Counted from the first letter of the stretch, positions 7,296 to 61,561 are shown. The stretch: 64,000 nucleotides of DNA from a virus (IMGVR_UViG_3300010885_072825:32001-96000), one strand, 5' to 3'. The notes: generated by a model from the sequence alone, not told the origin. A program made the numbers and translations.

Positions 7296-7462
7296 TCGGG
7301 TTCTCCTTGGTTAGTTGGATCAACAGGAAACATGGATTTATCATTTATAAATGAATTGGTAGTTAGATCCATTGGCTGTTTTATTTTTTTCAAAACACCA
7401 TTCTGTCTTACAAAAACAATTTTTTGATAAGTTATTTTAGTCAGTTCAGGATCAAGTATCAT
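7283..7462 (-). CDS. 59-aa hypothetical protein (missed by ORF track)
   Basis: MILDPELTKITYQKIVFVRQNGVLKKIKQP...; ATGA overlap with the 7459 stop, fills the gap exactly. Confidence 0.55.
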   Translation of the reverse strand: MILDPELTKITYQKIVFVRQNGVLKKIKQPMDLTTNSFINDKSMFPVDPTNQGEPECDQ

Positions 7463-8175
7463 ATTTTATATCCCTGTCTATAATAACTTTCTTTTACTTC
7501 TTTTACTTTGGGTTTTATTTTATTAACCAATTCTCTAATAACAGGTAACCCTTTGATAAATTCATATACGCCAGCTAATTCTTCCTGTGTAATTTCACCA
7601 GATTTAATCTGTTGCAACACAATTTTAAGCTTTTCCATGAACCGAGTTTTGAATTCTTTCATCAATAGTTCACGAACCTGTTGCCAATCATTGGGTGTTA
7701 TTTGTTTATTTTTAACTCGTTCATACATTTCAATTACTAGATCAGCAAATGATTGATTACCATTATTAATCAATTCTTCATGTGCTGCCTTAATTGCTTG
7801 TTCAGGCCCAGTCAATGACTCAGTTGTTTCATCCATGCGATCTGATCGTTCTGATAAAAACCACAATGTTCTACCAGAAGCAATACCCATACAGGCACCA
7901 ACGGTAACAATAATAACCACTGCGACTGCACCTGCAATAAGTGAAATCGTAAATTGTACAATCCCTAGAAAAGTAGATATAATCACCCCCATCACAGCAA
8001 ATGCTACCCAAGCAGCAAATACACCGCCTCCAAACAGGATGGTAATTGCAGTTAATGATTTCAACAGACTTTCATGATCTTTGACTTTGTCAAGCATGTC
8101 ATCGATTCTATTACCAACAGTCGGATTTTTACTTTCAAATAAATCCATATATTTTCTGATTTCTTGACTGCTCAT
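7459..8175 (-). CDS. EIRK-leader protein with two TM helices
   Basis: MSSQEIRKYMDLFE|S N-terminus; long hydrophobic hairpin; TAAATA at 8204-8209. Confidence 0.7.
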   Translation of the reverse strand: MSSQEIRKYMDLFESKNPTVGNRIDDMLDKVKDHESLLKSLTAITILFGGGVFAAWVAFAVMGVIISTFLGIVQFTISLIAGAVAVVIIVTVGACMGIASGRTLWFLSERSDRMDETTESLTGPEQAIKAAHEELINNGNQSFADLVIEMYERVKNKQITPNDWQQVRELLMKEFKTRFMEKLKIVLQQIKSGEITQEELAGVYEFIKGLPVIRELVNKIKPKVKEVKESYYRQGYKI

Positions 8176-8248
8176 TAGATAATCCTATCATGCTTATAAT
8201 GCTTATTTATGTTTTTATTTCATTTTTATATCTAAAAACTCAGTCAAT

Positions 8249-8276
8249 AAAAAAGGCACTGTTGCCAGTGCCTTTT
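8249..8276 (-). terminator. Rho-independent terminator (possibly bidirectional)
   Basis: AAAAGGCACTG-GCAA-CAGTGCCTTTTTT on minus strand. Confidence 0.85.
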
Positions 8277-8296
8277 CTATACTCTAAATTATTGAA

Positions 8297-8902
8297 TTAG
8301 AGAACGTTGCTCAAAAGTGCAAGTGTATTGCGGTTTGTTGCACTCGCTGTTTCAAACACTGTGGTCTGAAGTACAGTTGAAGCTAAATCTACAACAGCAG
8401 TACCTTGAATTGCATCAAGCAGCTGGTAACCAGCTGCATTGGTGTTGTCTGTTGAAGTAGTAGCTTGTACCAACCATGGATTCAAACGGTCAGTAGCAAA
8501 TTTTACTGTGTAAACAGTAGCACTTGAACTATATGCTGATCCAAAAGCAGTTGAATAGCTGTAGCCAGTATAAGTAGCAGCAGCGGGGTTACCAACTGTA
8601 GCTGAAGATATGCTCATAGCAACCAGTGAAGCACGTTGAGAAAACATTTGAACTAGAGTGTTCAAGTTAGCTTGTTTGTTAAACGCGTCTTGATAAGATG
8701 CTTGGGTAGCATATGTTTGTGCTGTACCAGAACCATCTGTGATTGTGATTGAAACCCAACCAGAAGCAGGGATGTATAGATTTGCAACTGAAGTAGTAAC
8801 GTTGGTTTGTGCTACTGGAACGATAGTAGCTACGTTGTAGTAAGAAATATTACCGGTGATAAATTCGCCGGCTTTGGCATTGCCATTGACACGATCTGTC
8901 AT
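8297..8902 (-). CDS. putative abundant virion protein (head decoration-like)
   Basis: A/T/S-rich 201 aa, AGGAG RBS, own late promoter (8949-8954) and terminator. Confidence 0.55.
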   Translation of the reverse strand: MTDRVNGNAKAGEFITGNISYYNVATIVPVAQTNVTTSVANLYIPASGWVSITITDGSGTAQTYATQASYQDAFNKQANLNTLVQMFSQRASLVAMSISSATVGNPAAATYTGYSYSTAFGSAYSSSATVYTVKFATDRLNPWLVQATTSTDNTNAAGYQLLDAIQGTAVVDLASTVLQTTVFETASATNRNTLALLSNVL

Positions 8903-8974
8903 TTTGCTCTCCTAAGATTAAAATTGCAAAGATTGTTGTTTGCAATGTTATTTATGCAAATGCTCTAGTTTGAG

Positions 8975-9415
8975 TTATTTGCCACGCTTTTTTCGCATTT
9001 TCTTTTCAGCTTGTTTAATATAGCCAAACAAGTTGGGCTCTCTACTGATGGTTTTACCATAGGGGGTTGCCACTGACGCAATGGATCCTGCACCGGTTGC
9101 GCCAGAACTTGCATCTTCAGATAACGGTGAGTGATTATCAGACATATTCAAATAAGACATTATTTGATCTGCTTTATCCAGGCTAATCAACTGATCATGA
9201 TCCTGTGTATTATATGGATGAGAATCCCATGCAACCGGGTCAATTATTTTTGCAATTGATTGACGATGCTCTTCTTGTTCAGGGGGGACTTCGTCTACCA
9301 GCAGGTCTTCTGGCTGAGGTTTTTCATCTGGAATTTTTGATTTTAAATCAGCATCAATAGATTCCAGTGATTCCATGATGCGTTTTATTTCAGATACTTG
9401 AGTTGGACGAGTCAT
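8975..9415 (-). CDS. hypothetical late protein with EIKR..SLE|S leader
   Basis: AAGGAG RBS, TAAATA at 9435-9440; LSE|DASSGATGAGSIA segment. Confidence 0.65.
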   Translation of the reverse strand: MTRPTQVSEIKRIMESLESIDADLKSKIPDEKPQPEDLLVDEVPPEQEEHRQSIAKIIDPVAWDSHPYNTQDHDQLISLDKADQIMSYLNMSDNHSPLSEDASSGATGAGSIASVATPYGKTISREPNLFGYIKQAEKKMRKKRGK

Positions 9416-9434
9416 TGTATTCTCCTTAGCTTGT

Positions 9435-9466
9435 TATTTATCAGGATCTCAGTTTTCACATAAATA
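9435..9466. promoter_or_regulatory. divergent late promoters (TAAATA on each strand)
   Basis: tattta 9435-9440 and taaata 9461-9466 between divergent genes. Confidence 0.6.
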
Positions 9467-9494
9467 GTCTACAAAACCGAGGAATTTTTCTACG

Positions 9495-9749
9495 ATGAAT
9501 AGTATCATTGATGAACTTAATCGATCAGTACCCGCAAAAAACAAACATGTGGTTATTGAAAATCGAGCAAAACATGTTATTGCCAGTGTTCAAAATCTTG
9601 TGGAATTAATTCGGGACTATTACACACTTGAAGAATCTGAAGAATTGATCAAGCGGTTACAAAAAAGCATATTGACTGGAGATGACCGTAAATTTACTAG
9701 AAAAATAAATGAAATGAAAACTATTTCAAAGAGGCGAATAAATGACTGA
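9495..9749 (+). CDS. small helical hypothetical protein
   Basis: GAGGA RBS, late promoter upstream. Confidence 0.65.
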   Translation: MNSIIDELNRSVPAKNKHVVIENRAKHVIASVQNLVELIRDYYTLEESEELIKRLQKSILTGDDRKFTRKINEMKTISKRRIND

Positions 9750-10653
9750 CGCTGATCGACTTATTCTCTTGTTGGAAACACAACAATTAGATGAAATTTC
9801 CATACCTATTCCTGCAGGTATTCAAAATCTCATTAACAAAGCAGTTGATGCTCGTGCACGCTACAATCGAGATGCGGCCGCTAGAGAACATGCCAAAACT
9901 GAAAAAGCTGAATTAAACCGAAGTGTTAGAATAGTGTTCAATAAAATCATAGGTGACATGGAAAAGCAGATTGGATCAGATCGAAAATCCATGACATTAC
10001 AAACCATGACTTATAATTTCCTTTATAGAAAATTGATTCAATGGTGTGGTTATGAAAACTTAAAAGCAAATGACAAAATTTTTGTGAAAGTGTTAAAAAA
10101 TCCCATTGCATCAAAACTTGCTGCAATTGACCATTTCACACCCATATCACTTGCTATATTAAAATCAAACAATGTGATATCACAAGATCCACAATTTCGA
10201 AAATTTCGAAAGAATCCTAGACAAATTGACGCAGCTATAGCTGACTTGATTGAAGCGCTGATCACACTTACATTGGTTGAATTGGATGGAATGGAACATG
10301 GTGAAGACCTGCCTATTACAGACACTGTTGTTTTAAATAATACCAGTTACGCAAAAGAATCTGATGGATCCTGGTATGATGAAGCAACTGGTAAATCGGT
10401 GGTTGATAAAAGATTACTTGCAATCTTAAATAAAGCACATGGATTAAAAAATACTAATTTTGCAACGCATACAGTTAATTACGAAGGGGTCAATTATACT
10501 AAAGATCCAAAAACAGGTGTCTGGACAAGCGCGCCACAAAATATACCTGTTGAAAAATCACAATCACAACTAATTGACTTATTGAATGATTTACTTGCCC
10601 ATAAAACAGGAACGGAAGCAACCAGATCCGTAAACGACAATTTACCGAGATAA
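9742..10653 (+). CDS. hypothetical protein with two C-terminal short beta repeats
   Basis: LLLE/QLDE near N-terminus; TVVLNNTSYAKESDGSW and TVNYEGVNYTKDPKTGVW repeats. Confidence 0.6.
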   Translation: MTDADRLILLLETQQLDEISIPIPAGIQNLINKAVDARARYNRDAAAREHAKTEKAELNRSVRIVFNKIIGDMEKQIGSDRKSMTLQTMTYNFLYRKLIQWCGYENLKANDKIFVKVLKNPIASKLAAIDHFTPISLAILKSNNVISQDPQFRKFRKNPRQIDAAIADLIEALITLTLVELDGMEHGEDLPITDTVVLNNTSYAKESDGSWYDEATGKSVVDKRLLAILNKAHGLKNTNFATHTVNYEGVNYTKDPKTGVWTSAPQNIPVEKSQSQLIDLLNDLLAHKTGTEATRSVNDNLPR

Positions 10654-10659
10654 CGACGT

Positions 10660-10688
10660 TTGACAAGCGGTCATCTACCAGCTATTGT
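10660..10688 (+). promoter_or_regulatory. sigma70-type promoter TTGACA-N17-TATTGT
   Basis: Upstream of AGGAG RBS and the 10708 start. Confidence 0.6.
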
Positions 10689-10707
10689 ATATTCAGGAGT
10701 GATTTAG

Positions 10708-15572: not shown

Positions 15573-15902
15573 TTATAGTGCAGGTTTAGTTTTTCGTCCC
15601 CGTTTTTTACCAACATTTTTAATTGATCCATCTGCATTCAATTCATATGTATCAATAAATCTATCAGGGCTCATGCCATCAATTTGAATAACTGAATTCC
15701 AATTAATATCTATAATCGCATCAGTTTTTAAATTTCGGCTTTTGAACCAATAATTATTGGCTTTGATTTGTATGGATTGAATATGAAAGTCGTCTGTTTT
15801 AGTAAATGGTCCAGTTTCAGTGTTGACCATATATTTTGCTGTAATTATAGTGTCTGTTTTAAATGCATTTTTTACTAATAGTGATTCTACTACATGAGCC
15901 AT
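15573..15902 (-). CDS. hypothetical protein
   Basis: IDGMSPDRF..Y and basic GKKRGRK tail. Confidence 0.6.
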   Translation of the reverse strand: MAHVVESLLVKNAFKTDTIITAKYMVNTETGPFTKTDDFHIQSIQIKANNYWFKSRNLKTDAIIDINWNSVIQIDGMSPDRFIDTYELNADGSIKNVGKKRGRKTKPAL

Positions 15903-15905
15903 TGA

Positions 15906-18122
15906 TTATTTTCCTTCTTGAAACTCAAACTCTAACTTTTTATTCTGTTCAGTGATAGTAACTCGCCCTCCTGTTTTTAGCCGACCCCAAAGAATTTCCT
16001 TGGCCAGTGGCGTCTTAATATAAGTTTGTATGACTTTTGGCATGGGGCGTGCTCCCATCCGTGGATCAAACCCACGTTCAATTAGCCAGGCTCTAGCTGA
16101 CGCATCAACTGTGACATCAACTGATTTTCCTTGACTTAACTGATTCAATTGACCAATGAATTTATCAAGTATATGATCCATAGTTATTTTTGTCAATGGC
16201 TTAAATTCAACTTGCGCATCAAGTCGATTTCTAAATTCAGGTGTAAAGAATCGGTTGACTGCATCCGAACTCTTGTCTGAATTGTCTGATTCACCAAATC
16301 CAATTCTCATTTTTGCAACTTCTTGTGCTCCAAGATTGGTGGTATAAATCACATAACAATTTCTAAGAGAAACAGTTTCACCATCTGAGCTGGTAATGAC
16401 ACCATAATCCATGGCTTGTAGGAAAATGTTGCTGATGTCCGGATGTGCTTTTTCAATTTCATCAATTAACAAAACTGCATAGGGATACTTTTGTAGCTTG
16501 TTGATCAACATGCCAGATCCTGCTGCACCATCTGAATATCCCACATAACCGGGTGGGCTCCCAATCAATTTAGAAACTGTATGCTTTTCTTGATATTCAC
16601 TCATATCAAAACGAATTAATTCAATTGACAATTGATTGGCAAGTTCTTGGGCAAGCGCTGTCTTACCAGTTCCTGTGGGACCAGTAAACAAAAAAGAACC
16701 CAGTGTTTTTTCCGTTTCTCTGAGACCACTACTAGATATCAATACTGAATCAACTAGTTGATCTACTGCCATGTCTTGTCCAAAAATTTTGGATTTTATT
16801 TTATCATTTAATGTTTTCAGTTGTTCAGTGGGATCGGCTGTTTTTGTAATTTTTATTTTTGCAACTCGTTCGATTTCTTCCTCAATTAAAGTTCGATCAA
16901 TTTGTCGAACACGTTGATTTTTAGGCAACAGTTTTTGTTTTGCACCAACTGAATCTATTAAATCAATAGCTTTATCTGGTAAGAAACGATCAATGATGTA
17001 TCGACTACTTAGTTCAACTGCTGCGACCAATGCATCAGGAGTGTATTTTACTGAATGGAATTTTTCATAGTGTTTTGAAATTCCCATCAAAATAGCAATA
17101 GCATCAGTTTGACTGGGTTCCAGCACGTCTATTTTTTGAAAACGGCGCACCAATGCACGATCTTTTGCAAAATGTCTCTTGTATTCTTCTTGTGTGGTAC
17201 TACCAATTGTTTTAATTTCACCACGTCCCAAAGCTGGCTTCAAAATATTTGCAGCATCCATTGCTCCACCAGACGTACCAACCGCACCAGCTCCCATGAT
17301 CATATGAATTTCATCAATAAACAAAATTAATTTGGGATCAGCTGCAAAAATACCAATAAGCTGTTTTAGTCGTTCTTCAAAATCACCACGAAATTTGGTT
17401 CCAGCCAACATACTAGATAAATCCAAACTGTAGATAGTGTGATTTTTCAAGCAATCTGGCACTTGATCTCGCACGATCTTGGCTGCAAGTCCTTCAACTA
17501 TCACGGTTTTACCAACGCCTGGATCCCCGGCCATAATCACATTGTTTTTATTTTTTCGAGTCAGGACCTGGCAAATAGCAGAGATTTCAGTTTCTCGACC
17601 AATAACAGTGTCGATTTTATTAGCTTTTGCTTGTTCATTTAAATTGATACACCATTGATTTAAAATATCACGCGGTGATTGCCGATTCCTTGCACTGCCA
17701 AGATTTGCCAAATAATTGAATAGCTGTTGTAGATCTGGTCCAAACTCTTCAATGAAATAAGAAGCATGACTTTCTTCAATACCATATAGTGCAATAAACA
17801 TGTCAATATCAGTTGGATCAGATTTGCCATTTATCATGGCCTGTGCTTTGGCTTTTTTCAAAACATTGGCAACGCTTGGTGTATGCCGTGGATTGTAGGG
17901 TTCTGCGGCTGACATAATTTCGTGATTATTGGTATTATCTAGATAATGCAGCGTGTATTCAATCAGTGAGTCAAAATCACCATCTGTCAGTTCAATCATT
18001 TTTTGAATTGCTTCACTTTCAAGTAGTGAAGCTAAGACGTGCTCCAAAGTCACCAGTTCATGATAGCGTTGACTGGCCAGTTGATAACTTCTGATCAGTA
18101 CTTCTTGTATGGTCTTATTCAT
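15906..18122 (-). CDS. clpA: ClpA-like ATP-dependent Clp protease ATP-binding subunit
   Basis: Clp-N domain, GDPGVGKT and GPTGTGKT Walker A motifs, [20 protein letters not shown] ClpP-docking loop, no ClpB M-domain. Confidence 0.92.
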
Positions 18123-18616
18123 TAAAATTCCTTCTTCATCATTCGTTTGATGGCCATTTCAGCTTTGAGATTCGATACTCTATCTACCATACAAATCCCT
18201 TGTAAATGATCAAATTCATGCAGAAATATTCTACTCAACATTTCAGACAACTGAGATTGTCGTATTTCTCCTGTTCGATCTAGCCATTTGGCTTCAATCA
18301 GATGTGGACGGGTGATTTCCAATTCCATGTTGGGCAAGCTCAAACAGCCTTCTGCATAAACGCTGTATTCTTCACTCACACCAACAATTTCAGGATTAAT
18401 GAAAACGATGTAATTGGTATCATCAGGATCACCAGCTATAAAAAACGATTTGTTTATTCCCACCTGTGGTGCTGCTAGACCAACCCCACCAAACATTTGC
18501 ATTATTTGATGCATTTCATCAAACGTGGCTTGTAATTCAGCAATTTCAGTGTCTTCCACTGGCAATGTTGGTTGAGTTAGTATTGGGTCCCAGGGTTTGA
18601 CTAATTCCAGTGTCAT
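18122..18616 (-). CDS. def: peptide deformylase
   Basis: GVGLAAPQVG, EGCLS, HEFDHLQG motifs. Confidence 0.95.
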   Translation of the reverse strand: MTLELVKPWDPILTQPTLPVEDTEIAELQATFDEMHQIMQMFGGVGLAAPQVGINKSFFIAGDPDDTNYIVFINPEIVGVSEEYSVYAEGCLSLPNMELEITRPHLIEAKWLDRTGEIRQSQLSEMLSRIFLHEFDHLQGICMVDRVSNLKAEMAIKRMMKKEF

Positions 18617-19503
18617 GCATAGTTCCTGTTTATTGTCATTATTGATAGTAATTGTTTAGCAAGTTCTTGTTGTTCTTCAGTTAGATGTTTAACATTGGTA
18701 ATTTTAATGACCACTATCAAATCACCCATCAGTGTTTCATTGTGTCTGATGGGCATTCCTTTACCGCGTACCTTTAGATGATCATTTGCATTAATGCCAG
18801 CTGGGATCTTCAAATTAATAGTTGTTTTGTCCAAGCAGGCGAGTGTTACTTCATCTCCCACCAATGCTTGAATTGAATTAATGGTTATTTCTTTGAACAG
18901 GATTGATCGTTCGCGATGATACCCCTGCATATCACTAATGACAATTCTTACATATAGATCGCCCGGGGGTAAATTTGTGTGGGTCGTATCACCATGTCCC
19001 GCATATCTTATTTGTTCTCCGCTTTCAATACCAGATGGTACTCGTACTGTTAATTTTGTAGTTTGTCCCGAGGGCCTATCAAATGATATGTCCACAGATT
19101 TGCCTGTCAATGCATCTGACAAACTGATGTTTAATGTAAAGACCAGGTCTTGATTCTTGGGTGGAGGAGGTTTGAAACCAAAAAAGCTATCGAATTGATT
19201 TCCAAATGCACCACTTCCCATAAATTCTCGCAAAATATCTTCAGGGGTAACATGTGATTGGAATCCGCCGCCGAAATTGGAGAAGCCACCCCCTGCTCCA
19301 CCATACTTTAGCTGCTGGTCATACTGCGCTTTTTTCTGAGTATCTCCCAATATGTCATAGGCTTCTGCAACAGCTTTGAATTTGTCTTCAGTGTCTTTGT
19401 TGACATCCGGATGATATTTTTTTGCTAACTTTCGATAGCTGGATTTGATTTCTTCTGCGGTGGCTGTTTCAGAAAGCCCCAGTGTTTGATAGTGATTTGT
19501 CAT
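18613..19503 (-). CDS. DnaJ/CbpA-like co-chaperone (type II, no Zn finger)
   Basis: J-domain with HPD, G/F-rich linker, DnaJ C-terminal domains. Confidence 0.92.
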   Translation of the reverse strand: MTNHYQTLGLSETATAEEIKSSYRKLAKKYHPDVNKDTEDKFKAVAEAYDILGDTQKKAQYDQQLKYGGAGGGFSNFGGGFQSHVTPEDILREFMGSGAFGNQFDSFFGFKPPPPKNQDLVFTLNISLSDALTGKSVDISFDRPSGQTTKLTVRVPSGIESGEQIRYAGHGDTTHTNLPPGDLYVRIVISDMQGYHRERSILFKEITINSIQALVGDEVTLACLDKTTINLKIPAGINANDHLKVRGKGMPIRHNETLMGDLIVVIKITNVKHLTEEQQELAKQLLSIMTINRNYA

Positions 19504-19534: not shown

Positions 19535-20413
19535 TCAAGATCTTTTATATTCATAGCCATATTCTTCACGCATGAAATCAATTACCTTGGGTGTAGGATT
19601 TGCTATTTCATTTATCAAACTTGCATCTTCTGAAACTGCATAAAGTTGAACATCTTCAATGGGATTAGTCATGTGCCTAATTGAATAAGCATTTTGTTTG
19701 ATAGCCGCCCACTGAAGCATCGGTAATTGATTTTCTACAAAACGAATCGAATTGCCATTTAATTGTACTGCTGCCAATTGAACTCGTAAGCTTGGATTTA
19801 CAATGTATTCCAATTCATAGGGATCTTCAGTCAATGCAGCAATGACTACCTTTTCACTAGGATTTTCCAACTGCCGTATTCTAGTACTCCAAGAACCACC
19901 GTCTAGAATCCATTCAATTTGCTGTTCTTCACTCCATGTATTTGGATCCCCTGCAACATATGATTCAGTTATTTGATTTTCAAGTTTTTTCAAATATTCC
20001 CGCCTATCCTGATCCAAAAAACTTTTATATTTTTTCAACAACGTAATATCAATACTATCAATTGGCCCAACCAAATTGATTAATATTGGCATTTTTTCAA
20101 AAGCAACTGTTTGAATCATAGGAGCTGGGGCGTATATTTGACAAATTGCTACTGCATTGGCTTGTACTGCGACTAGCTGTACTTTCAAATTTGGTGACTT
20201 GATATATTTCAATGCTTGGTAATCGCTTTTCACAGCAATCAATTGCGCTTCTATTGCAGGATCATCAATATATTGAATAGAGGTGGGCATTGATTCAACA
20301 GCGGCGATTTGAACTTTTAAGCTTGGTCGAGTGATAAATCTAATTACACTACCATCATATGATGAAATACGCTCTAGTTGTTCTAGCTCACTTAAATAAT
20401 CCAAAGCTCTCAT
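19535..20413 (-). CDS. helical-repeat protein (DUF4116-like, two modules)
   Basis: About 22-aa repeats PS..VQLAAV.....I.YI.N; ATG at 20413 lies 4 nt from TATAAATA (20418-20425). Confidence 0.7.
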   Translation of the reverse strand: MRALDYLSELEQLERISSYDGSVIRFITRPSLKVQIAAVESMPTSIQYIDDPAIEAQLIAVKSDYQALKYIKSPNLKVQLVAVQANAVAICQIYAPAPMIQTVAFEKMPILINLVGPIDSIDITLLKKYKSFLDQDRREYLKKLENQITESYVAGDPNTWSEEQQIEWILDGGSWSTRIRQLENPSEKVVIAALTEDPYELEYIVNPSLRVQLAAVQLNGNSIRFVENQLPMLQWAAIKQNAYSIRHMTNPIEDVQLYAVSEDASLINEIANPTPKVIDFMREEYGYEYKRS

Positions 20414-20494
20414 CAACTATTTATAGAATTCAATATTGAAAAACAAACTTCAAATAAAACAAACTATATTGACAACAATTGGAGACACTTTTTA

Positions 20495-27369: not shown

Positions 27370-27843
27370 TTATTTTTTTCTATAAGAATCCAAATCATAT
27401 ATTACAGCTGATTCTCTACGTTTCAGTGCTTCGTCTGCTTGAGATTGTAATTGCTGTCGATCAGCTTCTTGTTTTCTCAAGTCATCTAGTGTGGTATCTG
27501 CGCCCCAATTGGGATCACTCTGCAATTCCATTTCTACTTTTATCTGTTGTAAATAATATAGAGCTGTAAAAATTCCATATTCTAAATTTTCAGGCTCTGC
27601 TAAACATCTAGCATCCTGTGAACCAGTATTAAATTTTTTTCCTGTTTCCTGTTTAAGAAGTCTCAATAAACAATTATATTCTTGGTCGCTAATTTCGAAA
27701 ATATCACTGCTTGTTACTCTTTCTTTCCAAAAGCCGTGCCTCCAAGTTTCACTTGCGGCAATATAAGCAGGTGTATCTAAATACGCTAAATCTTCAATTG
27801 ATTCCAATAAATTAATGTATTTTCTAATTTCAACGCTGCTCAT
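27370..27843 (-). CDS. EIRK-leader protein, unknown payload
   Basis: MSSVEIRKYINLLE|S; TAAATA at 27867-27872. Confidence 0.7.
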   Translation of the reverse strand: MSSVEIRKYINLLESIEDLAYLDTPAYIAASETWRHGFWKERVTSSDIFEISDQEYNCLLRLLKQETGKKFNTGSQDARCLAEPENLEYGIFTALYYLQQIKVEMELQSDPNWGADTTLDDLRKQEADRQQLQSQADEALKRRESAVIYDLDSYRKK

Positions 27844-27872
27844 ATGATGTTATACCTTTAAAAAAATATTTA

Positions 27873-28373
27873 TCAAAACAGTTTTCTGATATCAATAGCT
27901 TCTGGTACTTTGCCAATATCTTTTATGAAATAAGCACATAGTGGTTTTGGTCCATCTTCCAAAGGCACTGCCAAAAGGTGGCCATTTTTTAATTTGGGAA
28001 AATACCATTTGACATCTGGCCAAATATTGATAACTTCAAACTTCGTAAACTTTGGCATATATCCATCTATGGGATTATAAGTGAACACATCAAAATCCTT
28101 GTCATTCAAATATATCAGTGGCATGATTTCTAGATCACCACTGTTAATATCTCCAATAATAACTGACCAATCCAGTGGCATTTGAATATTTGAATTTCCA
28201 ATTTTAATATCAACACAGGGACTATTGAAACTTTCAAGAAAAATAAGTGGTATAAAATAGTAGTCTACATCTGCTTGATCACTATAATCCAACACACAAT
28301 AGTTAATATCAACAGTTGCTTCTGGTATTTGATTTAAATTATAAGTTTGATTTTCGTTTGTTAATACTCTCAT
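27873..28373 (-). CDS. hypothetical protein downstream of uvsW
   Basis: 166-aa ORF; TAAATA-like box upstream. Confidence 0.65.
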   Translation of the reverse strand: MRVLTNENQTYNLNQIPEATVDINYCVLDYSDQADVDYYFIPLIFLESFNSPCVDIKIGNSNIQMPLDWSVIIGDINSGDLEIMPLIYLNDKDFDVFTYNPIDGYMPKFTKFEVINIWPDVKWYFPKLKNGHLLAVPLEDGPKPLCAYFIKDIGKVPEAIDIRKLF

Positions 28374-34041: not shown

Positions 34042-36027
34042 TTATTTCAAGTATTCACCATATTTCTCCAGTAAACTTGGGTCAATACATGATCGTGGGT
34101 TTATGAATTTGATTGCTATTGGATTTTGTTTTAACGCAGCACTTTGAACCATTGGTGCTGGTAAAATAATATATCGAATAGCTAATCCATTTTCGCTGAC
34201 CGCAGCCAATTGAATTGGTATACTAGGTTTGCTTATATATTGTATGGCATCCGGCATTGCTTTGACAGCAGCTAATTGAACTTCTAAAGAAGGATCGTTA
34301 ATGAATCTTATTGAAGTTCCATATAAATTAACGGATGCCAATTGAACAGGTATGCTAGGTTCTTCAATATGCTGAATATTAGCCCATGATTTCTCAACAA
34401 ATGCGATTTGTTGTTTCTCTGTCCAATCATTGGGTTCAACTGATTTGTTCTTTGTTTCGGTTAATGATTCATTCAATTGGTCACCATATTTCTCCAGTAA
34501 ACTAGGATTAATACATGATCGTGGATTTATGAATTTGATTGCTTCTGGTTTTTGTTTAATTGCAATCGATTGAATCATGGGTGCGGGATTTTCAATATAA
34601 CGAATTGCCATTCCATTTTGCTCCACCGCTTCCAGCTGTACTCTTATAGAAGGATTTTCAATAAGACGTATTAGGGTTCCATCTTTTCTAACAACAATTA
34701 ATTGAAGCTTCTCTGATGGATTTTTAATAAATTGAATAGCATAACCGTATCTGTTAATTGCCATTAATATAAGTTCTTCAGAGGCTTCAGAGGGATTTTT
34801 AATAAATTGAATAGCTCCTGGATTTTTTTGAACAGCAGCATACTGTATTTCAAAACTGGGATTTTTAATATATTTGAGTGCACTACCAAAAGGTGTCACC
34901 GGTTGATTCGTAACTGCACATAGTTGTACGTCAAAACAAGGATTTTTGATATACTGTATTGCATATGGATGAACTGCAACAATGGCCAATTGAACATTGA
35001 TTGAAGGATTATCAATTTGTTTAAATCTTTTAGAATAATTGAGAGTCTTTAATACCCATTTGATTTGTTCTTCATCACTCAAAGTATTGGGATCCGGATC
35101 TCGATTGATTGATTCATCTAATGGGATGATATTAGGTAAGTTATTGTACCAGTCTTTTATAGACGGTGCTAGGTCTTCCCGTTTAATACAAAATGTAACC
35201 ACCTGGTGATTTTTTTTTGCAGCGGCCCATTGGATCATTGCTGGAGGATGTTTTATATAAGCAATTGAATGTGGATCGGCGTTAACTGACGCCAACATAA
35301 CTCGAACACTAGGGTTCGGAATATATTCAATTGCAGCGCGATGGTTTTCGACTGCACACATCAAGATGTCTTCAGTGATTAACTCTGGCCAAGTATCCAG
35401 CATATCTCCAATGATCATTGAATCATCGTGGATTTTCACAACCCGGTCAATGGCCAATTTAATCAATCCAATACTTGGATTAGATAGATTGAATATCCAG
35501 TAGGGATTGTTTTTTATTTCTTCATATTTCTGTTCTTCTGAACGTAGATTACATTCATCTGAATAGGTTTCTAGAACTTGTTTTTTTAGAAAATCCAAAT
35601 TAGCTGAAAAAGAATTGAAATATTCCTGCAGCTCAACTTGTTCTCTTAATAGACCAAATTTGGGTTCAATGTCTCGATTGAATTTTGCCATGTGAATAGA
35701 CAAGCCACAATGCTTGCCAACTGATCTGATCAATTCAATCTTAGTCAACATTTTATTGAAATTCACATTACCGATCACGCTGGCGTCCGGAATTTTAATA
35801 TCGATCTGACTCTTTGCGCCATTTTCAACAAAAATAATCAAATAACTATAACTTTTTAAATTTTGTTTTTCAGTGTCAGAGTTTGCAACCGTAACAAACA
35901 TTCGTCGCATTTCAGACATGTCTTTGGTAGTTGCCCCATCTTGGTCAAACGTTTGAACGTGGCTTTCTTCCAAGCCTTTGACTATTCCCAGTATTCGTTC
36001 ACTAACATCATTCCAATCAATATTCAT
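34042..36027 (-). CDS. N-terminal domain fused to three helical-repeat (DUF4116-like) modules
   Basis: NPS..VQLAAV...G.AI.YI repeats; modules separated by LQE/VLE, LDE|S, LNE|SLTE; TAAATA at 36049-36054. Confidence 0.75.
   Translation of the reverse strand: MNIDWNDVSERILGIVKGLEESHVQTFDQDGATTKDMSEMRRMFVTVANSDTEKQNLKSYSYLIIFVENGAKSQIDIKIPDASVIGNVNFNKMLTKIELIRSVGKHCGLSIHMAKFNRDIEPKFGLLREQVELQEYFNSFSANLDFLKKQVLETYSDECNLRSEEQKYEEIKNNPYWIFNLSNPSIGLIKLAIDRVVKIHDDSMIIGDMLDTWPELITEDILMCAVENHRAAIEYIPNPSVRVMLASVNADPHSIAYIKHPPAMIQWAAAKKNHQVVTFCIKREDLAPSIKDWYNNLPNIIPLDESINRDPDPNTLSDEEQIKWVLKTLNYSKRFKQIDNPSINVQLAIVAVHPYAIQYIKNPCFDVQLCAVTNQPVTPFGSALKYIKNPSFEIQYAAVQKNPGAIQFIKNPSEASEELILMAINRYGYAIQFIKNPSEKLQLIVVRKDGTLIRLIENPSIRVQLEAVEQNGMAIRYIENPAPMIQSIAIKQKPEAIKFINPRSCINPSLLEKYGDQLNESLTETKNKSVEPNDWTEKQQIAFVEKSWANIQHIEEPSIPVQLASVNLYGTSIRFINDPSLEVQLAAVKAMPDAIQYISKPSIPIQLAAVSENGLAIRYIILPAPMVQSAALKQNPIAIKFINPRSCIDPSLLEKYGEYLK
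34055..34587. repeat. imperfect ~105-bp direct duplication (module ends)
   Basis: tcaccatatttctccagtaaact...atacatgatcgtgg.tttatgaatttgattgct at ~34055 and ~34481. Confidence 0.8.
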
Positions 36028-36054: not shown

Positions 36055-36762
36055 TCACATATCACCAAATGTGAAATGGCCCATGGGACTCAGTATTGAA
36101 TTGGGTAGATGACGTGACAATCTATAGCCAAAACTGACTTCTCGTCCTTCGGCAACATATTGAAATTTGTCAGGTGATTCTAACAAATAAAAGAAACGTT
36201 GTCCAGTATCAGTTGCAGGATCATAAAAATCAGCGTCAGCATCATCGAATTCCGGATCAATTGCCGTCGTTCCATCAGGCAATTGACTGCCAATATCAGC
36301 AAAATCAAATATGATTTGTGTTTTTAAATCTATTATTTTGGCTGTGAAAAATGGTGAACGAATCAAACTTTTCCACAATTGTTGGCCTGCAGGACTTAGA
36401 TGAGTATCACTCAATATTGGCAGTTTGGTATATTTTTTCACAAACAACATGAGCTCACTCAATATACCTTGTTTTTGATATTGTGGATCCACTGCGGCAT
36501 TAACTGCATATAAGACAGGACCTGGTGCTAATAAAAAACCACAATAACCCACCGGAGATCCTGGACCAACTGCGCGATTGACGGCAAAATAAATTTCATG
36601 CACTTCATCCTTTTGATACCAAACGTCGATTATGAATTTCACAGACCGTGGTTGAATCTGCCCTATCCTCCGTGCATTTGTTGCAGAAGGAATTGTCAAC
36701 TGTGGTTGGTCAAGTATCAATTGAAATTCTGCCAATGTTTTTTCGGTAAGTGGTAATCTCAT
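36055..36762 (-). CDS. GNAT-family acetyltransferase-like protein
   Basis: AVDPQYQKQGI (motif A), SDTHLSPAGQQLWKSL. Confidence 0.65.
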   Translation of the reverse strand: MRLPLTEKTLAEFQLILDQPQLTIPSATNARRIGQIQPRSVKFIIDVWYQKDEVHEIYFAVNRAVGPGSPVGYCGFLLAPGPVLYAVNAAVDPQYQKQGILSELMLFVKKYTKLPILSDTHLSPAGQQLWKSLIRSPFFTAKIIDLKTQIIFDFADIGSQLPDGTTAIDPEFDDADADFYDPATDTGQRFFYLLESPDKFQYVAEGREVSFGYRLSRHLPNSILSPMGHFTFGDM

Positions 36763-38355: not shown

Positions 38356-39240
38356 TTATCCAGCGATCAATTTCATTTCCATAGTTGGATTTTTCACATA
38401 TTTTAACGCTTCAGGATTTTGACAAATAGCTTGATATTGTACTTCTCGTCGTGCTCTGGACTTGAAATGCCCTAATAGGAGGCCATCTTTTTTGACTGCC
38501 GCTAATTGATATTCATATTTGTGAGGATTACCTAACTCCAAAACAACACTTGGTTGAAGGTCAATTGCTAGATACACTAGTTCATCACTGGGATTGTTGA
38601 TGGATCTTATTACACTAGGGGTTGTTCGTATTGCTGTTTCCAACAATTCTGGGAAATGCAATTTGTCTGGAATAGAACGTATTGCATATCCCGACGTTTT
38701 CACAGCTCGCATCAAAAGATCTCGGGTCACGAATTTGGATTTGGATATATCATATATGGTAGAATAACTTTCATCTATACATTCTTCCAAAAGTGACTTT
38801 GGTGGATTTGGCATTTCTAAAACTAGATCCACAACACCACTAGGCCATCGTTTGATTCCCAATGACATTATTTCTTCACTGACGTCAGTGAAGAATTTAA
38901 AGATGTTTGGTGATTTAGAAGAAATGATAGCTGTCTTTTGAAATTCAGTATCTGCTGAATATTCTTGAAACAGTTCTATCAAATTGGCGTCAATGCTCAA
39001 CGCCAGTAACTTGACTTCTCGACTAGTACTATGATCAGCAATATGTTTTTCCCAAAATTCTCTTAGGGGCCTTGTATACCGAGAGTCATACCACGTGTTA
39101 CTTTTTTGTTTTTCATAAAAACAATTGATAGCCATCCTTTGTAGAGTTTCTGTTTGTGGTTCAAGAAATCGAATCAAACTGGGATCTGACTTGATCATCT
39201 CCTCAATCTTGTCTAAAGAAAGAGTTACTTGTTCACTCAT
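38356..39240 (-). CDS. helical-repeat (DUF4116-like) protein
   Basis: QLAAVKKDGLLL, QYQAICQNPEALKYVKNPT, AVKTSGYAIRSIP repeats. Confidence 0.7.
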   Translation of the reverse strand: MSEQVTLSLDKIEEMIKSDPSLIRFLEPQTETLQRMAINCFYEKQKSNTWYDSRYTRPLREFWEKHIADHSTSREVKLLALSIDANLIELFQEYSADTEFQKTAIISSKSPNIFKFFTDVSEEIMSLGIKRWPSGVVDLVLEMPNPPKSLLEECIDESYSTIYDISKSKFVTRDLLMRAVKTSGYAIRSIPDKLHFPELLETAIRTTPSVIRSINNPSDELVYLAIDLQPSVVLELGNPHKYEYQLAAVKKDGLLLGHFKSRARREVQYQAICQNPEALKYVKNPTMEMKLIAG

Positions 39241-40483: not shown

Positions 40484-40499
40484 ATAGATAAATAGCTAG

Positions 40500-40988
40500 A
40501 TGACAACTGCTGAAATCCGAAAAATAATGACTGATTTAGAAACCATTGATTCTGTGGAAAATTCAGTTGATCAAGTTTCTACAGCATTGACAGATTTCAT
40601 TTCAGTTGGACGACCCTTATTAGAGTCATCTGAAATTGATTATGAAGAATTAAGCAAAAAATTTGTTCGATATGTTATGCGTGGATTGAAATTGACTGAC
40701 ATACCACGCATTGAATTCATTACTAAAAAAAGGGTAGAAACCCAACAACCATCGTTTGGTTCATTCAATCCAAATGACAATTCTATTGTGGTCAGCTGTT
40801 TGAATCGTCATCCGGTTGACGTGTTTAGAACTTTGGCACATGAATTGATTCACTACAAACAAAATATTGCCGGTGAACTGAGTACTGATTCTGGTTCAAC
40901 GGGCAGTCGACATGAAAATGAAGCAAATGCCGGGGCTGGTATTATAATGCGAAACTTTGCTAAAAAATACCCCGGCTACTTTAATTGA
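40500..40988 (+). CDS. EIRK-leader protein with zincin metallopeptidase domain
   Basis: MTTAEIRKIMTDLE, PLLE|S, LAHELIHYKQ (HExxH), ENEAN; TAAATA 5 nt from ATG. Confidence 0.75.
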   Translation: MTTAEIRKIMTDLETIDSVENSVDQVSTALTDFISVGRPLLESSEIDYEELSKKFVRYVMRGLKLTDIPRIEFITKKRVETQQPSFGSFNPNDNSIVVSCLNRHPVDVFRTLAHELIHYKQNIAGELSTDSGSTGSRHENEANAGAGIIMRNFAKKYPGYFN

Positions 40989-58261: not shown

Positions 58262-58346
58262 TTTGTTGTCTCCCAACAAGTATTCTTCAACAATTTGATA
58301 ATAACAACTTTTGATTTTTTGTCAAATGAAAAACATAAATAGTTTT

Positions 58347-58790
58347 ATGAGAATTAGTGACTTGCTTGATACACCCTTGAATGAATCCGATAAAAAAGCT
58401 GATCAAAAAGACCGAGAACAATATAAAAAATGGCGACAACTAGTGAACATGTCGTCAGCAACCTTGTCTAAATTTCTTGAAACTCGAACTGGTGATGAAG
58501 CTGGACTTAAAAAGAAGCAAGCAGCCAAATTGGGAATTGGTACTGGTCATGAAAGTGCGCGCGCAATTTTGCGAATGAGAAAAAAGCCATTTTCTGAATG
58601 GAATGAAACTGATCGCAAATGGATGAATCGACAAATATCATTCATATCTCGGATGTCTGGCAACCCTGGCCCACTGGTGAAAAAAGATGCTGACGGCAAA
58701 AATATACCTACAAGAAAATTAACATCACTTTGGATCTGGGGTCATATTCCAACCGGATATCCGCCCGGCAAGTTTGGTGTTTTTAAATAA
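58347..58790 (+). CDS. DUF3140-like protein with putative protease leader
   Basis: LVNMS, GHESARAI, SL..WGH.P; MRISDLLDTPLNE|S; TAAATA 5 nt from ATG 58347. Confidence 0.7.
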   Translation: MRISDLLDTPLNESDKKADQKDREQYKKWRQLVNMSSATLSKFLETRTGDEAGLKKKQAAKLGIGTGHESARAILRMRKKPFSEWNETDRKWMNRQISFISRMSGNPGPLVKKDADGKNIPTRKLTSLWIWGHIPTGYPPGKFGVFK

Positions 58791-59172
58791 ATTCATCTAG
58801 ATCAATATATTGAATTTGTTCAATATGTAATGACTCCATAGCACCTGAACCATAATAATTACTAACTGGATAAAGAAAGAGTTGAATAACTCGTCCCGAA
58901 TCTAAAGTCATCTCAAATGTAGGATTTTTGATCTTAATTCTTTCTTGCCATGGCAATAGTTCATAATGTTTGTGTGACGCTGCAATATAAGGACTTTCAT
59001 CACCTTCACATCTTCCAAAATATCCATTCGAAGTGCCTTCAATTTTGTCTTTGATTTCTTCCAGTGTCTGTTTATTTTTGCTCATTGCCAAAATTCTTAG
59101 ATCACGAAGCGACTCATGATCAGTGCCATTGAAGCTGTAGATATATGTTGTCAATTGATATGCAGTAGCCAT
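58783..59172 (-). CDS. hypothetical protein
   Basis: AGGA RBS, 129 aa. Confidence 0.55.
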   Translation of the reverse strand: MATAYQLTTYIYSFNGTDHESLRDLRILAMSKNKQTLEEIKDKIEGTSNGYFGRCEGDESPYIAASHKHYELLPWQERIKIKNPTFEMTLDSGRVIQLFLYPVSNYYGSGAMESLHIEQIQYIDLDEFI

Positions 59173-59198
59173 TTAAAAATTCCTAAAAAAGTTAAATT

Positions 59199-59456
59199 TT
59201 ACGCTCTGTTGAAGCTTGCACAGATTACACCAGCTGGTAGATGAGTTTCACCAATATATTCTACAATTACGTTTTCTGGATTGGTCCATGAATGATCATC
59301 ACCTCCAATCCAATCAGAACCATCCCATTTAAGAAATATACCATCCGGATGAATCAGTTTCGCAGAATCTGATGTTTCAGCAGCCACAACCGCACAGTCA
59401 TAGCTGTCCCACCATTGGTTTTTCAAAACAGTACGTGAAATAAGAAATAATTTCAT
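59199..59456 (-). CDS. small phage protein
   Basis: YDCAVVAA...A..IHP...VICASFN; GAGGA RBS. Confidence 0.65.
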   Translation of the reverse strand: MKLFLISRTVLKNQWWDSYDCAVVAAETSDSAKLIHPDGIFLKWDGSDWIGGDDHSWTNPENVIVEYIGETHLPAGVICASFNRA

Positions 59457-59465
59457 GTCAAATCC

Positions 59466-59585
59466 TCAATTAGTTTTGTCTGAGTCTTGAGTTTCATTCA
59501 ATGCGTCTCGGCGGCCATCCAAAAACCCAGCTACATAACCAATAATTGCTGCACTTAATGCCGTGATTACAAGTTCCAAAAACAA
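59466..59585 (-). CDS. possible 39-aa TM peptide (TTG start)
   Basis: FLELVITALSAAIIGYVAGFLDGRRD...; AGGAG upstream, sigma70-like promoter ~59617-59642. Confidence 0.4.
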   Translation of the reverse strand: MFLELVITALSAAIIGYVAGFLDGRRDALNETQDSDKTN

Positions 59586-59638
59586 TGCATTTGAATGTCT
59601 CCTGTTGTGCCGTCATCATAACAGGATTATTGTTTATG

Positions 59639-60871
59639 TCAATCAATTTCTCGAACATCCCATGCTTGCGGACCCCAGCTGGTATATTTTACTTGAACTT
59701 GATTTTGATGTCGAAGACGACCAACAAAATCTTTAGATCTAGCTTCCACAACTTCATTTGATCCAGGATGGATATATGAAATATTATCAAACTGATCCAA
59801 ACATGTGACGGCCAATTGAGGAGTGTTCAGTTTGATTTTGAACACTGTGGCCATTGCCTGAGATCGTTCCCAATCTGATTGAATGTTCTTATAGAGCTCG
59901 TTAAGATCCAGAGGCGCGAATCGCAAAGTATCTTGCCATGGATTGGGTTTGTTGGTTTGATCAACTACTTGAGAAAAATCCATTTTCAAATTTTCCCATT
60001 TTAGTGGACCTGCTCCATGGCGAGTGGCATAGCAGCGGGTCACATATACAGGGGTGATTTCTTTTACTCCCAGTTCAGCCGCAGTATGAATTGCACTGAG
60101 CAGTCCCGTAATCGACCTAGTCACATGGGGAAATTCACCCATAAGTTCATCCAACCCCAGACCCTGTGCACCTTCAAAAATCACAGGTGTATCTTCCCAA
60201 ATGTTGAAAGGGTTGAAATTGGGTTGAATCACTTTGAGAGTTTCTAGCATACGTTTGATCATGGCCCATTCTGAATCAACATTCATCAATGGTACAAATT
60301 TTTGATATTCGGGGAGATGTTCAAATGGTTCTAGTAGTGGTTTGTAATATTCCTGTACTCGCAAAAGACTGAGAGAACTAGTACCATAACAACAATCATT
60401 GAGAACCAACTGCGCTGATGGATCTTGATTTCTAGTTACCGTAGCATTCACACCCAAACCACAGGACCCATGCTTGCTAGTACCTCGACTAATTTCTTGC
60501 AATTGATTATATGCAATATCCCAAATTGTGGTGATGATTGCGCTGGGATGAGCCCAAAAATTATAATGATAGGGACCATCAACATGTTGGATTCCCAATG
60601 CTTGTAATTGATCCCATTCTTTTAGAAATGCAAATGGATTGACGATAAAATTACTAGATAGATAAGTTCTAGATCCAGCAAGTGTTCCAGATCCAAAGTG
60701 ACCAAACACATGACGATGTTGATCTGTTACCACAGTGTGTCCAGCTTGAGCTCCGCCATTAACACGAGCAACTAGTGTATTTTTTGGACCTAACTTTCTA
60801 GCTAGATAATCAGTAATCAAGCCTTTGCCTTCATCACCATATCCAGCACCAATAACAGCATAGTTCGTCAT
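59639..60871 (-). CDS. purA: adenylosuccinate synthetase (PurA-like)
   Basis: GDEGKG, GGAQAGHT, HGSCGLG, EGAQG..LD, TRHGAGP; start moved to MTNYAV (AAGGTG RBS, promoter 60895-60922). Confidence 0.85.
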   Translation of the reverse strand: MTNYAVIGAGYGDEGKGLITDYLARKLGPKNTLVARVNGGAQAGHTVVTDQHRHVFGHFGSGTLAGSRTYLSSNFIVNPFAFLKEWDQLQALGIQHVDGPYHYNFWAHPSAIITTIWDIAYNQLQEISRGTSKHGSCGLGVNATVTRNQDPSAQLVLNDCCYGTSSLSLLRVQEYYKPLLEPFEHLPEYQKFVPLMNVDSEWAMIKRMLETLKVIQPNFNPFNIWEDTPVIFEGAQGLGLDELMGEFPHVTRSITGLLSAIHTAAELGVKEITPVYVTRCYATRHGAGPLKWENLKMDFSQVVDQTNKPNPWQDTLRFAPLDLNELYKNIQSDWERSQAMATVFKIKLNTPQLAVTCLDQFDNISYIHPGSNEVVEARSKDFVGRLRHQNQVQVKYTSWGPQAWDVREID

Positions 60872-60894
60872 GACGTCACCTTGAAGTTTCATAG

Positions 60895-60922
60895 ATTATA
60901 ACATGCCATTGAAATCTGTCAA
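60895..60922 (-). promoter_or_regulatory. sigma70 consensus promoter TTGACA-N16-TATAAT
   Basis: Exact -35 and -10 hexamers. Confidence 0.75.
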
Positions 60923-60979
60923 CCTCTCTGTCAGAATGATACAAAAACAATAAATAAAAGCAGCAATCCGGAGAACAAC

Positions 60980-61561
60980 GTGTCTATTGAAGAAATTAGA
61001 AAACTTATTGATTTATTAGAATCTGTTGATCAACATCAAGTACTTGGTGAGTCTATTTGGCCAAGTGCGGAAAAACGTACTGCTAAAGAACTTAAAAGGG
61101 ATGAAGCCAAGCGAAGAAAGCTAACTCCAACAGTAGATGAACAAGCACAGGATTTGTTACCAGCTGTAAAAAAAGCATTTAATTATGTGGTAAATGGTGG
61201 AAATAGGCCAGACGGGGTTTATATTCGTATAGAAGAAAATAAAAAAATATCATTTAAACTCAGTGGTGATTATATTACATCTTATGCAACGCCATTTAAT
61301 ATATTATTATGCACCAAACGAAATAATATGTTGGGGTGGGATGCAGATAATAATAAGTTATACTTGTTTGAATACAAAAATATCGGTACGTCTAAGACCC
61401 CAATATTCATACCACACACCAGATATGTGGATTTTAAATTTCCCGGAGAATATAATCCGCAGTTACCAGGGGATGTCAAAAAGGCATCCGCTATTTTGAA
61501 GACATTATGTGATTCTCCTGAATACAAGGATTTCACAAAATATTATACATATTTCAGCTAG
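60980..61561 (+). CDS. EIRK-leader protein, unknown payload
   Basis: MSIEEIRKLIDLLE|S..VLGE|S; TAAATA 60951-60956; GGAG RBS, GTG start. Confidence 0.7.
   Translation: MSIEEIRKLIDLLESVDQHQVLGESIWPSAEKRTAKELKRDEAKRRKLTPTVDEQAQDLLPAVKKAFNYVVNGGNRPDGVYIRIEENKKISFKLSGDYITSYATPFNILLCTKRNNMLGWDADNNKLYLFEYKNIGTSKTPIFIPHTRYVDFKFPGEYNPQLPGDVKKASAILKTLCDSPEYKDFTKYYTYFS

Follow-up and report, generated by a model that had tools for sequence, protein, structure and literature searches.

Five open reading frames (ORFs) of an uncultured phage, and a sixth elsewhere on the same contig, begin with a common leader peptide of consensus [ST]xEIRKxhxLhE[STG], hereafter the EIRK leader. The window analysed here is a stretch of 64,000 nucleotides, bases 32001–96000 of one 139,590-bp IMG/VR virus record (IMGVR_UViG_3300010885_072825), which is classed as linear and has a CheckV completeness of about 35%. 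On balance, the leader peptide appears to be a removable address tag at the N-terminus, similar in kind to the capsid targeting sequence (CTS) of phage T4, which would load proteins into the phage head and then be clipped off. This reading, held with modest confidence, draws on motif consistency, alignment, synteny and homology; docking, cleavage, packaging and ejection are steps that we infer. New here are the sixth member of the family, at least about 15 cargo types and two leader-bearing genes in the cultured phage Phosso.

The leader genes would be transcribed from late-type ATAAATA boxes along with the head genes. The amphipathic leader helix would dock each protein to the scaffolding core during prohead assembly, and a gp21-type prohead protease (Peptidase_S77) would cut after the Glu of the h-x-E motif at the leader's end, with further downstream cuts in ORF3, ORF4, ORF5 and ORF6. 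The body would be left behind inside the head, from where it may enter the host with the DNA.

The leader family and its upstream box

The six members and their boxes are as follows (window coordinates unless stated otherwise; aa, amino acids; a slash marks the putative cut).

ORF1, 7459–8175, minus strand: 238 aa; leader MSSQEIRKYMDLFES at 8131–8175; ATAAATA box at 8204–8210, minus strand, 35 nt upstream
ORF5, 8975–9415, minus strand: 146 aa, acidic; starts MTRPTQVSEIKRIMESLES; leader ..VSEIKRIMESLES at 9359–9415; second site PLSE/D at residue 100; C-terminal GATGAGSIAS motif, capsid N-arm-like; box at 9435–9441, minus strand, 26 nt upstream
ORF2, 27370–27843, minus strand: 157 aa, orphan; leader MSSVEIRKYINLLES at 27799–27843; box at 27867–27873, minus strand, 30 nt upstream
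ORF3, 40500–40988, plus strand: 162 aa; leader MTTAEIRKIMTDLET; PLLES at residues 39–43; HExxH motif; box at 40488–40494, plus strand, ending 5 nt before the start codon
ORF4, 60980–61561, plus strand: 193 aa, GTG start, orphan; leader (M)SIEEIRKLIDLLES; second site VLGE/S at residue 24; box at 60950–60956, plus strand, 30 nt upstream
ORF6, contig 132242–133498, minus strand: 418 aa, outside the window; N-terminus MSASEIRKHLNLFEG; about 3 kb from the capsid gene

An earlier note on this DNA had pointed to five window ORFs with near-identical starts, and all five are present with the starts it gave. Their likeness exceeds chance in three comparisons. A hidden Markov model (HMM) was built from the five window leaders and run on the entire contig as 2,180 six-frame segments; it matched only these five ORFs and the ORF6 N-terminus (10.5 bits), with the next best segment at 7.1 bits. 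The same model, which the note had proposed to scan over the whole genome and its relatives, thus supplied the sixth member, and further bodies were found in related contigs. A degenerate DNA pattern of the leader gave 5 matches in the contig against 0 for the reversed-pattern control. When the N-terminal 25 residues of 178 ORFs were compared all against all (15,753 pairs), the seven highest-scoring pairs were without exception from the six-member family, at 41–47 against a null maximum of 36.

Beyond the leader the bodies are unrelated (best between-member BLASTP E-value 0.23), as had been proposed; the earlier strand picture needed amending, three of the five window ORFs being on the minus strand, while those at 40500 and 60980 do stand as lone plus-strand genes between minus-strand neighbours. 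The proteins are 146–418 aa long, and the isoelectric points (pI) of the six bodies are 7.7, 4.65, 8.7, 9.1, 5.0 and 6.25. The body of ORF1 has two hydrophobic spans (about residues 41–103) followed by a helical C-terminal part; five of the six proteins have no peptidase domain. The leaders end in LFE/S, LLE/S (twice), IME/S and LFE/G, and ORF3 fits the h-x-E-small site at its second site, LLE/S, only.

ORF1 and ORF5 have close orthologues only. The 11-residue leader core is kept in full in ORF5 orthologues with 63–83% identity elsewhere, and the ORF1 orthologues P0055 and P0056 retain 10 and 8 of its 11 residues, respectively. ORF2 found no relative but itself among 1.84 billion representatives, a protein atlas look-up for ORF4 gave no usable match, and tblastn of ORF5 against 50,697 phage records gave no match. 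Since ORF1 and ORF5 have only close orthologues and ORF2 none, leader swapping across lineages can be examined for ORF3 only.

It is very unlikely that the likeness is a leftover of common descent, or a convergence of an ordinary amphipathic helix, with no shared function. Similar N-termini do occur on unrelated metagenome proteins, and among the matches listed for a first, looser IMG/VR scan, unrelated MxxxEIRKxxxxxE starts predominated. Against this, the 139.6 kb contain six copies, whose scores exceed those of all null pairs, the core is intact in ORF5 orthologues that are otherwise merely 63% identical, and the same leader is found on at least about 15 bodies of related contigs, most of them behind the same box.

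An ATAAATA box lies 12–35 nt upstream of each of the six leader genes, in agreement with the earlier claim that each has its own box; within 60 nt upstream it is found in 6/6 leader genes and in 42/178 genes overall. The other box-bearing genes include those for the protease, terminase, tail fibres and virion proteins, and also some replication genes. We take the box to be a late promoter from its likeness to the T4 sequence TATAAATA.

The distance from box to start codon has two preferred classes, one of about 26–37 nt and one of merely 4–5 nt. The close class (offsets −8 to −12) comprises about 14 of the 42 genes, including terminase, ORF3 and the ORF at 58347; were the box a late promoter of the T4 type, the late mRNAs from these genes would be leaderless or nearly so.

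At the DNA level, synonymous codons differ between the six leaders (ATC/ATT/ATA for Ile, AGA/CGA/CGC for Arg, TTA/TTG/CTG for Leu, AGT/TCA/TCT for Ser), the mean nucleotide identity across the 33-nt leader core is 65%, and apart from the box the 60 nt upstream cannot be aligned (31% ungapped identity). Because of the synonymous differences and the unalignable upstream DNA, selection is taken to act on the leader peptide. A portable promoter-plus-leader DNA cassette, as first imagined, is not supported by these data or by the variable distance of the box from the start codon, and no recently copied unit of this kind is seen. An element acting at the RNA level, in translation initiation or in regulation, within the first 45 nt of the message would account for the fixed position at the coding start, close behind the promoter box; it is an extremely improbable explanation, as the peptide is kept while synonymous positions vary, at the nucleotide identity given above.

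Head genes, virion proteins and the putative cleavage motif

The large terminase of the contig shares 45% identity with its counterparts in Sinorhizobium phage Phosso and Agrobacterium phage Atu_ph07, and 43% with the one in Pseudomonas phage PA5oct; the major capsid protein is 76% identical to that of Phosso and 68% to that of PA5oct. On these identities, the contig is assigned to an uncultured jumbo phage of the Phosso/PA5oct/RaK2-like group, of which it is a fragment. Parts of the stretch occur in 10 DNA sequencing runs from 6 studies, mostly labelled freshwater metagenome; no RNA run was found among the sequencing runs listed.

Three head genes lie at the far end of the contig. They encode a Gp23-type capsid protein (317 bits; L005:11450–12652, minus strand), a gp22-like scaffold homologous to PA5oct gp330 and a T4 gp21-family prohead protease, Peptidase_S77 (89.9 bits, the cut-off being 27). 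A gp21-family protease together with a gp22/gp23-type core and shell, as expected of a T4-type CTS system, is present in this phage.

The end motif of the leader, h-x-E-[STG], is also found at the N-termini of these three proteins. The capsid protein carries MKQNLFES and, directly before the stretch aligned to residue 15 of mature T4 gp23, MLMES; the scaffold begins MKDALTELLES, and the protease has VLTES. PA5oct and Phosso retain the capsid and scaffold N-termini in the forms NLFES/RLFES/KLFES and ELLES. Of the 26 [LIMF]xE sites in the scaffold, 11 have S or A as the next residue; proteome-wide, S follows 10% of such sites. A predicted complex of the scaffold (407 aa) with ORF2 residues 1–40 scored 0.00 in a run that had no controls, which is no answer and counts neither for nor against docking.

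Residues 100–146 of ORF5 (..LSE/DASSGATGAGSIASV..) closely resemble how the capsid protein's mature-type N-arm begins (..MLME/SATAGATGAGNIATL..). This arm-like part has its own preceding h-x-E site, is kept in orthologues and matches phrog_17311. In the Phosso record (PV764938.1), the S77 protease homologue (240503–241135) is labelled 'scaffolding protein' and the scaffold homologue (245307–246719) 'Rad50 ATPase'; these names look wrong, judging by the N-terminal sequences and the gene order beside the capsid gene.

ORF1 and ORF5 lie within a block (window 935–9749) syntenic with PA5oct gp244–gp259, a run mostly of virion proteins verified through tandem mass spectrometry with electrospray ionization (ESI-MS/MS). 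The earlier note had listed three weaker relatives of the leader, two of which carry a different, shorter leader of the pattern M-R-x-x-D-L-L..E-S.

Short-leader protein, 2786–3130, minus strand: 114 aa; decapeptide-type leader MRYRDLLCE/S
Short-leader protein, 58347–58790, plus strand: 147 aa, DUF3140; starts MRISDLLDTPLNE/S; ATAAATA box at 58335–58341

The first of these stands as a homologue (pairwise E 1e-6) of PA5oct gp246, an ESI-MS/MS virion protein that starts (V)KIKDILVES, and the two share the N-terminal decapeptide. PA5oct gp333 and gp246 are the only ORFs of that phage matching the strict decapeptide pattern, and both are verified by mass spectrometry. A looser match, gp213, is neither N-terminal nor detected by mass spectrometry. 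The third listed relative, a GNAT ORF at 36055–36762 (MRLPLTE), has no ATAAATA box within 60 nt and no leader similarity; neither its membership of the family nor the acetyltransferase cargo that it had suggested is supported. The searched passages of the PA5oct paper (PMC7318152) contain nothing on head-protein cleavage or processing or on late promoters.

T4-style capsid targeting, as the earlier note had proposed it, keeps the S77 protease, the motif of the head proteins, the decapeptides of cargo homologues described below and the synteny, and loses the cassette and the GNAT member. Its diverse cargo is reduced to a zincin peptidase (ORF3) and a protein with two transmembrane (TM) segments (ORF1), the remaining bodies being orphans.

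Cargo junctions and a candidate two-part code

The predicted layout of ORF3 comprises a helix (residues 3–35), a loop (36–47) with GRPLLE/S and an HExxH zincin domain (48–162). In its AlphaFold2 model, with a predicted local distance difference test score (pLDDT) of 86, strands occupy residues 70–74, 87–90 and 95–99 and helices residues 105–123 and 137–156. HELIH is invariant in 17 sequences of a MAFFT alignment, and the body is, by its model, a small zincin-like metallopeptidase. Structure matches in BFVD reach E 8.6e-13 and are IrrE-N-like phage proteins; those in the PDB, to IrrE/PprI, minigluzincins and SPRTN, are weak (E 2e-3 and above). The structure search also placed the fold within multidomain proteins of 800–1,100 residues from uncultured phages.

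ORF3 has 47 homologues at E <= 0.001, mostly of 128–140 residues. Twenty-six were examined (24 fetched, together with those of cyanophages B3 and S-SRM01), and in 13 of them the first residues are a decapeptide with h-x-E-[SGN] at its end, for example MKIRDLLFES, MKVKELLNES, MRAQEFITEN and MNYKQFLRES. These resemble the T4 CTS MKTYQEFIAE as given in passages of PMC8442874. MAFFT places the decapeptides column for column on the internal GRPLLES of ORF3, so that the EIRK helix and linker form a 33-residue extension before the family's usual start, in ORF3 and in its 77%-identical relative P0002, which is encoded on one 329-kb contig with P0055.

Among 80 IMG/VR homologues of ORF3, the strict N-terminal site is kept in 18 of 43 short forms. 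In the multidomain homologues, h-x-E-[SGNTA] is found in the 32-residue junction window of 26/35, where upstream regions give an expectation of 0.16 per window; these are homologous proteins, and the 26 sites represent one conserved feature, not 26 independent events. Fourteen of 18 contigs longer than 100 kb that carry the ORF3 family also encode Peptidase_S77, a proportion for which large phage contigs in general provide no baseline here; among those at least 90% complete, it is present in 5/5. A basic module, ..RHGIN..SSLRK..GGRKGQLAHW..NMK.G..K, is also present in many ORF3 homologues (P0030, P0031, P0026 and P0037; L293–L296). It lies on the C-terminal or on the N-terminal side of the peptidase, and in the N-terminal case the two are again separated by an h-x-E-[SA] site.

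In ORF6, repeated modules are preceded by three [LI]SE/SDQ junctions. Two relatives, L259 and L261, have a leader ending ..NLFE/SDQ fused directly to ORF6's module, and MAFFT aligns the leader of both with the internal ..DTLSE of ORF6. From this fusion and this alignment, leader ends and internal [LI]SE/SDQ junctions are, at the sequence level, interchangeable. Such interchangeability is a prediction of a common processing site; recombination at a short shared sequence would look alike. The AlphaFold2 model of ORF6, made from a four-row alignment, has a pLDDT of 44, too low to use for the exposure of LSE/SDQ.

Taken with ORF3, the leader looks like a lineage-specific docking module placed before a generic, older cleavage site, h-x-E-[SGA], that is common within the protein family. 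A two-part address code, in which the EIRK docking helix precedes this older site, the site being common to T4-type phages and marking module junctions as well, is put forward as a tentative possibility. If it were true, ORF6 would be a small polyprotein cut at LSE/SDQ, and a two-TM protein would be among the cargo, as would a zincin peptidase of the type that occurs in injected polyvalent proteins. Sequence alone would then reveal what uncultured jumbo phages load into their capsids, and Phosso would be a ready test system and possibly a protein-delivery chassis.

The same junctions bear on another explanation, in which the leader is a propeptide for inactivity or chaperoning, not an address, removed by the prohead protease or by an ORF3-type zincin, with no need of packaging. 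The conservation of h-x-E-[SGA] at the domain junction of ORF3 homologues, N-terminal or internal, would fit it, as would the presence of the fold in the 800–1,100-residue proteins. Passages of PMC5512222 also propose self-processing for the zincin peptidases of phage polyvalent proteins. This explanation is nevertheless doubtful, given that five of the six leader proteins have no peptidase domain, that the shared 11-residue helix before the site exceeds the needs of a cleavage site and that the same arrangement serves targeting in T4.

The leader in other genomes and in comparison with known systems

IMG/VR was searched with two pattern scans and an HMM scan of eight fetched contigs, the first pattern scan giving at least 112 stretches. 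Among the matches listed were orthologues of ORF1, ORF3 and ORF5, as well as new bodies, 89, 141, 155 and about 255 residues in length. A metagenome scan gave 101 stretches, mostly unrelated proteins with a similar start, and further bodies behind the same box. Clustering resolved 25 unique N-termini into 19 body clusters; L259 and L261 form one of these, ORF6 itself lying under the 11-bit clustering threshold. At least about 15 clusters appear genuine, most of these related-contig bodies sitting behind the same box; four clusters without a box look unrelated.

Two genes of Phosso carry a one-residue-longer leader, MTNDIRKHMDMLNE/A (gene 445, 328028–328768) and MSNANEIRKTLEILNE/A (gene 595, 418489–418956), and both leaders end in the classical L-N-E/A. 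Gene 595 lies behind a GTAAATA box like those before the Phosso protease and core genes. Gene 445 occupies the corresponding place of the virion module, after a DnaB-type helicase and adjoining the gp256 homologue.

A 16-column leader alignment search of Phosso and PA5oct returned no candidates and, having no positive control, is uninformative. Three DNA-pattern matches in the two phages were rejected: one has a stop codon, one has Ser at the Arg position and the third lies inside a PA5oct recombinase ORF. N-terminal clustering of PA5oct gave small early paralogues and tail-fibre N-termini and no EIRK-like family, and the gp332 N-terminus (KELEKVLDLLLNE), considered as a relative of the leader, had no HMM score and was dropped. 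A literature search of limited scope found no published description of such a leader in the Phosso/PA5oct lineage and no paper on Phosso.

A number of observations weigh against capsid targeting by the EIRK leader. DNA patterns and HMM and regular-expression scans found no EIRK leader in PA5oct or Atu_ph07, so the leader is not a clade-wide device. Some relatives' leaders end in LFEI or LIEL. The first Glu of ORF3 (DLE/T) has Asp at P3 and lies inside the predicted continuous helix 3–35. The leader is not always better conserved than the body, since ORF3 and P0002 share 6/11 of the leader core and 79% of the remainder. The junction motif of the ORF3 family is inherited within one family and could instead be a structural feature or helix cap, or a self-processing site of the peptidase. 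Proteome-wide, without the leader family, h-x-E-[STG] is only weakly enriched at N-termini (0.0047 per position against 0.0033). Unrelated metagenome ORFs of cellular appearance can likewise begin with an EIRK-like helix, for example those starting MNLSEIRKLVKLVESSEIQEVEIE.., which are presumably biotin carboxyl carrier proteins. Lastly, the helix type is generic, and the cargo is not uniformly small and basic as the T4 internal proteins are (body pI 4.65–9.14).

The generic amphipathic helix, found also on unrelated proteins, and the heterogeneous charge of the cargo would equally suit a docking helix for a partner outside the virion, with no capsid loading: a ClpA-like unfoldase, for which the leader would be a timing signal or degron, a chaperone, a membrane or a host target. 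Signals at the N-terminus are recognized by ClpA systems, and the products of the phage include a ClpA-like AAA+ protein (TIGR02639 match of 835 bits, under the equivalog cut-off), a DnaJ-like protein and a peptide deformylase. PA5oct, however, has a ClpA-like gene as well (40.7% identity) and no EIRK leader. Docking of this sort, which we regard as unlikely, though less so than the propeptide, leaves unexplained the end motif common to the leader, capsid protein, scaffold and protease, the swap of leader ends with internal LSE/SDQ junctions and the place of two members within the virion-protein block.

The closest known parallel to capsid targeting by the leader is that of T4, whose targeting sequence was reportedly treated by Mullaney and Black in 1996. 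In T4, IPI–III, Alt and core proteins are directed to the scaffolding core by propeptides of 10–19 residues, and gp21 cuts the tag off after L/I-x-E; the first 10 residues of IPIII suffice, and foreign proteins can be loaded in this way (passages of PMC9026906, PMC3012670 and PMC5694885). The EIRK family is similar in having a short N-terminal peptide common to unrelated proteins and ending h-x-E, in a phage with a gp21-family protease, a Gp23-type capsid, a gp22-like scaffold and a TATAAATA-like box. It differs in its EIRK-type helix of 14–15 residues or longer, with no resemblance to MKTYQEFIAE; that likeness is confined to the separate decapeptide class (MRYRDLLCES, and ORF3 homologues such as MRAQEFITEN). 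The cargo here is not uniformly basic, the helix in one cargo is a separate module before a decapeptide-type site, and the leader genes, which are known from sequence alone, are dispersed and not clustered.

PhiKZ-like phages have longer propeptides with several sites, and the SPN3US ejection protein gp47 combines a propeptide with a TM segment (passages of PMC5694885 and PMC9026906); two-TM cargo such as ORF1 thus has a precedent. Common to phiKZ, 201phi2-1, SPN3US and the present phage are jumbo size, several redundant sites ending in Glu, conserved N-termini of paralogues and, in SPN3US gp47, one ejection protein with a TM segment. Their propeptides, in contrast, have 20–130 residues, belong to a different lineage and are cut at S/A-x-E (small-x-E) sites by gp175/gp245, with cleavage demonstrated by mass spectrometry (same passages).

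Twelve clades of zincin-like metallopeptidase (MPTase) domains of phage polyvalent proteins are described in passages of Iyer, Burroughs, Anand, de Souza and Aravind 2017 (PMC5512222). The ORF3 body is likewise a small HExxH zincin with a fold found in phage proteins of 800–1,100 residues, a likeness by fold matches only; ORF3 differs in standing alone at 162 residues.

Should the tag indeed load proteins into the head, sequence alone would suffice to list which proteins a whole group of uncultured freshwater jumbo phages packages and probably injects. The T4 targeting principle would then survive in the distant Phosso/PA5oct/RaK2-like lineage, in a code that is different and in part modular, and the tag could be used for loading foreign proteins into large capsids. 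Phosso, an isolate in which two genes carry the leader, opens the idea to testing by ordinary virion mass spectrometry.

Several other features of the phage were recorded. The genes for the ClpA-like AAA+ unfoldase, the peptide deformylase and the J-domain (DnaJ-like) protein lie side by side at window 15906–19503 on the minus strand. A divergent adenylosuccinate-synthase-like gene (phrog_1211; window 59639–60892, minus strand) scores far under the cut-offs of the PurA and PurZ models, so that any role in making 2-aminoadenine DNA would be tentative. QueD-like, QueE-like and Thg1-like genes are also present.

At contig 15766–18264, two ORFs match the two halves of one dehydrogenase family (phrog_9582), with an HNH/homing endonuclease ORF between them; the gene looks to have been split by a mobile element. 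Several further homing endonucleases adjoin core genes (UvsX and the capsid gene). Two transposase-like ORFs matching phrog_506 (L001:9347–10585 and L003:10140–11345), which we take to resemble IS200/IS605 TnpB, occur in this lytic-type jumbo phage contig. Five large paralogous proteins (phrog_5925/17056/25923; 293–1,548 aa) are scattered over the contig, and two of them flank the terminase. Their positions are as follows.

Paralogue, window 19535–20416
Paralogue, window 34042–36027
Paralogue, window 38356–39240
Paralogue, L001:2839–5115
Paralogue, L005:2566–7212

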